Below are positions 19,939 to 55,788 of a stretch of 64,000 bases of DNA, in pieces (position 1 is the first letter of the stretch; each line of letters starts with the position of its first letter). The DNA lies in the NCBI GenBank assembly GCA_022450395.1, contig JAKUQE010000015.1, forward strand, positions 377 to 64,376, given 5' to 3'. This DNA is from Dehalococcoidia bacterium. GTDB lineage: Bacteria > Chloroflexota > Dehalococcoidia > Lucifugimonadales > UBA3495. Made by a program: the position numbers and the translations under genes. Below the pieces are notes generated by a model, which did not search any database, was not told the origin of the DNA, and was given only the letters and a program-made list of their open reading frames with translations.

Positions 19939-20097
19939 GTCAGTATTGCGGGGCGCGCGGGATGGAAGGTCTTCGGGTGGCGGACTGGATTTAGTGAGGT
20001 GGCTGGTGACTTGGGATAGGGTTTAACGTTACTTGGGTCTGATTTACTGTTGATCAAGCTTGGCAAACAGTTTTGTAACGAAGCCAATCAATCCCAT

Positions 20098-20262
20098 CCC
20101 TTCGGCTGCGATCAGGGCAGGCTCTCACCTTCCCCCATGGAGGGGAAAGGGATTGGTTCTCTCCACCTTTATGACGGAGAGTTAGAGAGGGGGTGGTTCG
20201 ACAGGCTCACCACGAACGGATGGAACGGTCCCATCCCGTTCGTTCTGAGCTTGTCGAAGGAC
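20098..20262. repeat. Composite REP-like cluster including family B (GTGGTTCGACAGGCTCACCACGAACGG...CCGTTCGTTCTGAGCTTGTCGAAGG)
   Basis: Family B also at ~7272-7322, 27411-27483, 35692-35760 and 41749-41777. Confidence 0.8.
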
Positions 20263-20297
20263 CATGCTCCTTGCGGATGCGGGTTTGAGTTCGGCGC

Positions 20298-20666
20298 CTA
20301 GCTCGGCGTTACGAAAGGAAGGTTTTCCTCTTTCCAGGAATTGAACCCAGGAGCCATGTAGACCACGTTGGTGTAGCCCATCGCCTTCATTGTCTGTCCT
20401 GACAGGGCAGCTCGCGCGGTGCCCATTCAATGGGTTACGATCATAGCGTCCTTGTCTGGGACCAGTTCTTCCAATCTGCTTTCTATGCGCCCTCTGGATA
20501 ACAGTACCGCGCCTTCGATAACTCCTTGTTCCCATTCGTCCGGCTCCCGGACGTCCAAGATCACGATGGGCTCTCCGGCTTCCTGCTTTTCGTGGACCTC
20601 CTTGGCCGACATGGACCCTACGGTTGCCTCGGCGATCTCCACCATTCTGCGTCCAATGTTATCCAT
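20298..20666 (-). CDS. Rhodanese-like sulfurtransferase, probable selenoprotein (in-frame UGA at active site; 122 aa with readthrough)
   Basis: ILDVREPDEWEQGVIEGA...IVTH-TGA(20427-20429)-MGTARAALSGQTMKAMGYTNVVYMAPGFNSWKEENLPFVTPS-TAG. The TGA sits at the catalytic Cys position and a hairpin follows. Confidence 0.85.
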
Positions 20667-20839
20667 CTACATTCTCCCTTGGTGAGTTTTTGGCGTTTGG
20701 CTTATCTGAAAAAATCCAATCTTGTTGACGCGATTCCGCTTTGGGACAGGCAAGAGAATATGGCCCTCGACCCCGGCTTGTCAATCGTGGAGCGCGGGCC
20801 GGTCTTGGGGTATCGATAGGCCGACCGGGATAGCGAAGT

Positions 20840-55130: not shown

Positions 55131-55655
55131 TTACCGGGTTGGGGCCGGGTAGTCGTCCATGTTGAAGGGGCTGCCGTTCAGGTTGACGGTGTCGTGGAAC
55201 AGTTTGGGGTCGGCAATCGTCTGCCTAACGTAGCAGCCGTTCCTAGCGTTTCTTAGAAGACCGGCCACCTCTGCCGGAGTGTTGGAGGACTCTATCTCAT
55301 AGTGGATCTCTATCTTGTCCGCCCGGGCTTGGACCGTTTGGGCCAGCACCGAGCCCTCGGATGCCACGTGCAGAGCGATGGTAGCTGTTACGTTGGTGAC
55401 TTCGACCTTCATCATTTGAGCGTACCGCTCAATCTGGGTCATCTCTCAAAATAAGATGGATGAGGCGAAGTAGGCCAAGGGCGACGGCGCGGAGTTATCC
55501 CCCATGGGCTCCCGTTCGGCGCAGTTGATGGTGAAGCCGCGGATCTCCGCTTGTTTATTTTGGTGCTCCAGGATCCGGGCGCTGCCCTCCATGGAGAAGG
55601 ACCTAGAGATGATGTCCGCGGACGCGGGCTGGGAGGAAGGAGCCGGAGTAGTCAT
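55131..55655 (-). CDS. OsmC/Ohr-family protein, probable selenoprotein (in-frame UGA; 174 aa with readthrough)
   Basis: GDNSAPSPLAYFASSILF-TGA(55446-55448)-EMTQIERYA...ARNGCYVRQT. The two track ORFs are in frame and the TGA sits at the first conserved Cys. Confidence 0.85.
55416..55432 (-). promoter_or_regulatory. Candidate bacterial SECIS hairpin
   Basis: TTGAGC-GGTAC-GCTCAA starting 13 nt after the UGA, with a G-initiated loop and a possible lower GACC/GGTC stem. Confidence 0.65.
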
Positions 55656-55788
55656 GACTGCCTCCAGATAGGATTAGATTTCGGGAAGTATAGCACGGGG
55701 GTTTCCTTGAAATGCGTCTGCCAAAATTGGGTTACGACGCTCTGGTGCCCAGGGAGTCCTGGGTCGAATCCAGCGCGCCTAAAGCTAA

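Follow-up and report, generated by a model that had tools for sequence, protein, structure and literature searches.

Within the 64,000-nucleotide window (the whole stretch of Dehalococcoidia DNA that was analysed), a 79-aa open reading frame on the minus strand (20666–20427 in the table 11 ORF list) ends at a TGA, in the context IVTH-TGA, and its translation continues in frame for 42 further codons up to a TAG at 20300–20298. Does this TGA terminate a short protein, or is it decoded as selenocysteine (Sec) at the catalytic site of a complete rhodanese, as proposed in the initial annotation of the locus? The sequence statements made in that annotation all hold; the strand, left unstated there, is the minus strand, and the plus-strand reading of 20298–20666 contains no gene. 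When the TGA is read through, the coding sequence (20298–20666, minus strand, ATG to TAG, with this single in-frame TGA) specifies 122 aa that match the Pfam Rhodanese profile along its entire length (positions 1–102 of 102, E = 3e-18; PF00581 score 66.5 bits, cut-off 22.2), while the 79-aa ORF covers positions 1–66 only (E = 2e-8). The AlphaFold model of the read-through product, obtained with 25 orthologs as input, had a pLDDT of 95, and Foldseek returned rhodaneses (TM 0.91 to 6mxv, 0.89 to 2hhg and 0.80 to Sud, 1qxn). Alignment with these three proteins places the TGA (codon 80; 20427–20429, minus strand) at their catalytic Cys, as had been claimed, and the residue presumed there is Sec; the sequence 3′ of U80 includes AMGYTNVVYMAPGFNSWK. 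An RBS-like GGGAG (20674–20678, minus strand) lies 7 nt 5′ of the ATG, and purine-rich stretches likewise precede the start codon in orthologs. About 90 nt upstream there is a sigma-70-like promoter match, TTGACA-16-CATATT (20757–20784, minus strand; a consensus match only); the two overlapping matches found upstream, compared with a shuffle mean of 0.3, suggest that the gene may have its own promoter.

The TGA might be a sequencing error, mark a pseudogene or close a 79-aa fragment that is functional as such. Contigs from four public runs (X11, X12, X15 and X16; two DNA and two RNA libraries) span 20427–20429 and none has another letter there; one X12 contig of 717 bases covers the whole gene. 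The agreement between these independent contigs (contigs, not raw reads) indicates that the TGA did not arise through misassembly. In the two RNA-library runs, related alleles were represented by contigs that span parts or most of the gene; contigs do not prove transcription. As for a functional fragment, the public databases do hold the 79-aa form: 81 of the 120 database matches listed (of 2158) are 79-aa proteins ending in the H that precedes the UGA, some of them labelled ‘hypothetical protein’. This is the truncation by gene callers that had been foreseen, and such a fragment lacks the catalytic loop and one third of the domain; the entries thus amount to a systematic annotation error, which the read-through product corrects. 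A pseudogene would be in keeping with the weakening of the downstream hairpin in the source allele (see below), but the TGA and the frame that follows it are kept in homologs down to ∼50% protein identity. A pseudogene, error or fragment is hardly credible at this locus, and this explanation can be regarded as already largely refuted.

To follow codon 80 across homologs, 101 genomes were searched: the source genome, three of its genus, 57 more of the family and 40 of the order. Close orthologs (E < 1e-35) were present in 11 of them, with TGA in 10 (source genome included) and CGA in one. A total of 121 loci was examined, comprising the 11 close orthologs, 29 GTDB loci, the best 80 of 491 and one from a class-wide search; 19 distant rhodaneses were omitted from the 30 loci fetched among the 101 genomes. 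Codon 80 was TGA in 40, TGC or TGT in 79 and CGA in one of the 120 mapped loci. Some records occur twice in this set, and 29 are distinct when compared over a 228-nt core. The pairing of TGA with Cys codons that the initial annotation had proposed looking for is therefore found. After the UGA the frame remains open for 41–46 codons in 37 of the 40 TGA loci, the remaining three ending at contig ends. The TGA genes stand alone, while the Cys-bearing loci found were mostly rhodanese-MoeB fusions. The class-wide search (401 genomes, E 1e-25) rendered one further match, with Cys, and nothing but multi-domain repeats came back when 1.84 billion representatives were searched. The best three of the 29 GTDB loci come from Dehalococcoidia or Chloroflexota records (95, 90 and 69% identity), the 90% cluster of the fragment includes a protein labelled SAR202, and the runs holding matching DNA are marine. 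Gene neighbours were conserved among near relatives only and indicate no substrate.

In a quick tree the Sec clade had an SH-aLRT value of 89; the lineage with Arg at the catalytic site was nested among Sec genes and one Sec gene grouped with the Cys proteins P0004 and P0005, so that Sec was probably lost at least once. The Arg lineage was read in one locus (L026; G048:C279:7212–7574), in which the catalytic codon is CGA and the hairpin is kept, in a genome that has selA and tRNA-Sec. Since seven full-length Arg proteins exist (P0002 and P0122–P0127), this is not a single error. Natural Sec, Cys and Arg alleles of the catalytic site thus exist, besides the natural stem mismatch described below.

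The source genome has the means to insert Sec. All four genes that the initial annotation had proposed checking are present in the assembly: selA, selB and selD score above their TIGR cut-offs, the SelD gene having an in-frame TGA of its own, and the selC product, tRNA-Sec, reaches 66.4 bits (cut-off 47). Among the 10 other ortholog-bearing genomes, selA was found in all and a tRNA-Sec match (62–70 bits) in nine. Two database proteins (P0003 and P0013) have Trp at the codon-80 site, and it could be asked whether UGA is read as Cys or some other residue, through a special tRNA or under an alternative genetic code. The Trp may reflect a real TGG or a gene caller using code 4, and a special tRNA might have been missed, the assembly being 79% complete. 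However, the only tRNA with a UCA anticodon found in this 79%-complete assembly is the canonical tRNA-Sec, which speaks against the option, left open in the initial annotation, of Cys inserted by a UGA-reading tRNA. Ordinary ORFs in the genome end in TGA, so the genetic code has not been changed globally, and a SECIS-type stem under selection follows the codon. Decoding as a residue other than Sec is very improbable. In turn, selA, selB, selD and tRNA-Sec, together with the conserved TGA/Cys pairing, support Sec at the catalytic position, and insertion of Sec at codon 80 is, on this genomic evidence, very likely. Since selA is present in 91 of the 101 genomes and the rhodanese ortholog in only 11, the gene must be dispensable.

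The hairpin that would direct this insertion differs from those first put forward. RNAalifold, run on 24 distinct TGA-bearing sequences, predicted one hairpin, at columns 23–39 (20410–20394, minus strand): a SECIS-type element with a 7-bp stem and a G(U/G)C loop, here a GUC triloop at 20403–20401, located 23 nt after the UGA. Its conserved stem, CUGCCCU-GUC-AGG(G/A)CAG, was paired in 167 of 168 cells (99.4%) over the 24 sequences, compared with 29–54% for control stems slid along the alignment. Two-sided changes were seen in three of the seven stem pairs, and none of 500 shuffles equalled the stem; among these related sequences, few lineages account for the compensatory changes, so the events are fewer than the cells. 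Four-fold degenerate sites point in the same direction: in the five stem-loop codons the third base was 96–100% fixed, while at 27 other codons the mean was 52% and none reached 90%. The element ranks among the cleaner covariation-supported bacterial SECIS elements. In the part of PMC13188914 that was available, bacterial SECIS elements are modelled with a loop of 3–9 nt, a stem of 4–16 bp, a G among the first two loop nucleotides and a spacing of 16–37 nt from the UGA, which the 3-nt G-first loop, 7-bp stem and 23-nt spacing observed here fit.

The conserved stem overlaps both hairpins named in the initial annotation, each of which is present in the sequence and fails as a SECIS element. The one enclosing the UGA (20429–20400, minus strand) exists exactly as described and gives the source allele its lowest-energy structure (−13.5 kcal/mol), although 21 of 200 shuffles folded equally well (z = −1.38); across orthologs it was 85.4% paired, a value reached by 87–499 of 500 shuffles, and it is best seen as a competing fold that lacks covariation support. 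The CUGU-CAGG-ACAG stem, 21 nt after the UGA, was also 85.4% paired, with no two-sided change and nothing beyond shuffles, and its U-A pair exists only in the source-genome allele.

The sole unpaired cell of the conserved stem is the source-genome allele itself, in which a synonymous GGG-to-GGA change produces a C·A mismatch (20407/20397). When the naked RNA of this allele was folded, the UGA-enclosing hairpin was preferred and the pairing probability of the conserved stem was ∼0, compared with 0.5–0.96 in five relatives. Folding from position +12 gave −6.3 kcal/mol for the source allele, in another fold, and −9.3 to −12.6 kcal/mol for the five relatives; the published SECIS energy limit is −7.5 kcal/mol, for a region that differs from the one folded here. 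Given the weak stem, the C·A allele may, judging from these folds, lower read-through in the source strain. The mismatch allele also occurs in one other metagenome contig, and both letters at 20397 were found in run X11 and the pairing letter in X12, indicating a population variant.

What would a Sec-containing rhodanese of this kind do? The U-MGTAR loop, at first judged atypical, is not so for rhodaneses: UMGTAR aligns without gaps with the loops of 6mxv, Sud and 2hhg (with CKTAARAAL in Sud), forming a six-residue loop with Sec first and Arg last. Six-residue active loops mark sulfurtransferases, and seven-residue loops Cdc25 phosphatases. The loop-final Arg (R85) is invariant among 25 orthologs, as are R40, R58 and R60. 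The best solved match with a specific substrate in its title is Sud of Wolinella succinogenes (1qxn; E = 9e-13, TM 0.80), which shares the N-terminal helix and the SRG motif, its loop being CKTAARAALAGKTL and that of the present protein UMGTARAALSGQTM. Sud is a periplasmic homodimer that uses Cys in polysulfide respiration; the Sec rhodanese, in contrast, is only ∼30% identical to it and has no hydrophobic signal stretch visible at its N-terminus, so it would work inside the cell. The closest structure, the tandem rhodanese-like 6mxv (34% identity), and the closest NCBIfam profile region, the N-terminal rhodanese of PRK08762 MoeB fusions (87.7 bits), both use Cys, in a CxGGxRS loop, and occur as duplicated or fused domains, whereas the Sec rhodanese stands alone.

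According to the consulted part of PMC10925157, the loop cysteine of rhodaneses relays sulfur as a persulfide. As in bacterial Sec biology generally, SelB carrying Sec-tRNA would bind the triloop, which begins with G and lies 23 nt after the UGA, and decode that codon; Sec80 would then attack a sulfane donor (polysulfide, thiosulfate or protein persulfide), in line with rhodanese chemistry. Sulfur would be held as an Se–S intermediate in a U-M-G-T-A-R cradle lined by the invariant R40, R58 and R85, and finally handed from Sec80 to a thiol acceptor. The likeness of the loop to that of Sud favours polysulfide or persulfide handling. Sulfur cycling has been associated with SAR202 (PMC5864207, in the portion available). 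Taken jointly, the data are best explained by a real gene whose product is probably a 122-aa, single-domain Sec rhodanese that shuttles sulfane sulfur in the cytoplasm; the sulfane-carrier role is itself a prediction, held with reasonable though far from full confidence.

Alternatively, Sec could be inserted into a protein that carries selenium, or takes part in general thiol/peroxide redox chemistry, instead of carrying sulfur. Selenium can be bound by rhodaneses as perselenide, and the dozens of candidate selenoprotein genes in the genome imply a high selenium demand. Against these roles, the ortholog alignment has no second conserved Cys, the gene lies on a contig other than those of selA, selB, selC and selD, and most selA-bearing relatives lack it; this explanation is unlikely.

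A different partner is suggested by the PRK08762 match, the best in NCBIfam, and by the predominance of rhodanese-MoeB fusions among the Cys-bearing loci: the Sec rhodanese could be an in-trans sulfur donor for a rhodanese-less MoeB (a split MoeZ), thiocarboxylating carriers of the ThiS/MoaD/CysO type. Indeed, no rhodanese domain is attached to the genome's only ThiF protein, and the genome also has genes of the ThiS family and for JAB proteins. Neither co-occurrence nor linkage bears out the partnership, however: rhodanese-less MoeB occurs in 99 of the 101 relatives and this rhodanese in 11, none of the 24 loci inspected has a MoeB gene next to it, and the quick tree, weakly resolved, puts the Sec proteins among standalone rhodaneses, outside the main fusion clade. 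A split MoeZ is accordingly rated as quite unlikely. The rhodanese-less MoeB gene lies in a row of three (G000:C321:11827–14681, L157), between what we take, from sequence recognition, to be an Rrf2-like regulator gene and a cysteine-synthase-like gene.

Returning to the sulfane-carrying Sec rhodanese, the kind of enzyme is not new, in agreement with the initial annotation: predictions of Sec rhodaneses date from 2005 (PMC1088965), 2007 (PMC1976440) and 2008 (PMC2398784), as far as the accessible parts of these papers go. A 2026 review (PMC13188914) distinguishes five forms, all marked in its Table 1 as predicted and none as experimentally verified; a small soluble protein such as this one is therefore convenient for testing the role of selenium in sulfur transfer. 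The nearest precedent is the ‘Sulfurtransferase COG0607’ of the GOS survey of 2008 (PMC2398784), a prediction in the available text, which is likewise a single PF00581 domain from marine bacteria, whose six-residue loop has Sec where the catalytic Cys would stand and closes with Arg. However, its six sequences in the GOS file at hand have UNGGRR, UGSGGR or URSGRR loops, or a frameshift-like tail, whereas the 29 distinct orthologs have UMGTGR (11), UMGTAR (6), UMGAGR (4), UGGTGR (3), UGGSGR (2) or one of three singletons, the +3 residue after U being T, A, S or E in all 29 and Gly in none. In the same GOS file, HUMG, HUAG, LSGQT, LAGQT and GYTNV had no match, and one match each to HUGG and GRIEG fell in unrelated proteins. 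In the parts consulted, PMC9312934 and PMC13188914 list protein MBM9537886.1 as COG0607 form 1 and as rhodanese-like form 2 (UxxG), respectively. The UxxG motif of forms 2 and 4 is absent from all 29 orthologs, form 4 being also two-domain; at the Ser of the UxxS motif of form 1 this protein has T, and S appears in two of the 29. The remaining forms, LYCAU (NF041203, form 3), COG2897 (form 4) and TsoB (NF045694, form 5), share the rhodanese fold with Sec in or beside the active loop, but differ in architecture and motifs (scores of 46.5 against a cut-off of 115, and of 32.4 against 805); for NF041203 and NF045694 the score is below the NCBIfam cut-off and the CxU or UxxxxU motif is lacking. 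The subfamily reaches none of the NCBIfam cut-offs, and in the known Sec-MoeB the U lies in the MoeB domain, not in a rhodanese.

A search of the literature on selenoproteins of SAR202, Dehalococcoidia and Chloroflexota and on single-domain Sec rhodaneses found no paper on the subfamily, which is apparently an unlisted member of the known Sec rhodanese kind from an abundant deep-ocean lineage. The genome list of BSepDB, in the portion of PMC13326102 available, includes a SAR202 genome with a protein in the same 90% cluster, so this Sec rhodanese may already be held there. An independent Cys-to-Sec switch in a Sud-like SAR202 rhodanese lineage, absent from published lists, with selenium trafficking sulfane sulfur under a minimal G-triloop SECIS that dozens of genes in these genomes would share, is a tentative and rather doubtful extension of this reading, possibly with the protein feeding a rhodanese-less MoeB/thiocarboxylate pathway. 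If true, it would offer a 122-aa model for what selenium adds to rhodanese catalysis.

The same stem was sought across the genome with a strict pattern (a 7-position stem with at least six Watson-Crick pairs and a G-first triloop). It followed 0.64% of 110,037 TGA triplets, and control codons at an equal rate; allowing pentaloops raised the rate to 1.6%. Adding a requirement for coding-like flanks left 51 sites, the rhodanese gene included. Family searches on 21 sites assigned 17 to families of the published selenoprotein table (GrdA, GrdB, PrdB-like, UGSC, DUF3179, deiodinase-like, OsmC-like, SelW, FtrB, BtuF, DsrE and Prx-like), three to families outside it and one to none. Some real cases escape the filter, among them the C110 and C223 rhodaneses. 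On our reading, the assembly contains ∼35 plausible selenoprotein genes, many of them UGSC-family copies, and most have a short G-triloop or pentaloop stem 16–27 nt after the UGA. Selenoprotein richness in Dehalococcoidia is already on record, with 49 and 46 genes in the part of PMC13326102 available.

Five more rhodanese genes of the source genome bear a TGA. Those of C212, C305 and C311 are two-domain, SseA-type and form-4-like; of those in C110 and C223, one has U-HDSA-U and a C-terminal extension resembling CBS domains, and the other is fused to a membrane protein and has an in-frame TAA as well. Within the window, a second selenoprotein gene, for an OsmC-related (seleno)protein (55134–55673, minus strand, TGA near 55448), scores above the NF041052 cut-off and has LF-U-EMT and a GUA-triloop stem. 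A thiolase-like gene (PF22691; G000:C101, TGA 46872, minus strand; L203/L216/L217) has FYD-U-YT and an 11-bp SECIS-type stem, and its TGA recurs in two of five genomes (G001 and G002, 98–99% identical); thiolases are absent from Table 1 of PMC13188914 and from the GOS files, as far as available, and no paper on a selenoprotein thiolase was found, making this gene a candidate new selenoprotein family. An MFS transporter (G000:C4, TGA 2685, minus strand; L214/L218) with YFV-U-GYS and a hairpin is likewise a candidate new selenoprotein: one of five genomes (G064, 57% identity) retains its TGA and the sequence after it, and the published table, in the part of PMC13188914 consulted, has no MFS family. 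A type II haloacid-dehalogenase-like gene (G000:C29, TGA 5296, plus strand; L207) has an in-frame TGA and a triloop stem; as it had no match in five relatives, it could be either a selenoprotein or the result of a recent nonsense change.

Directly downstream of the rhodanese gene lies a palindromic, REP-like interspersed repeat (20181–20265, no strand assigned; fold z ∼ −4), which is not specific to this gene, with 89 blastn matches on 49 contigs of the genome. A second palindromic family (20096–20165) has 30 blastn matches in the genome, and both families carry variable loop inserts in other contigs.
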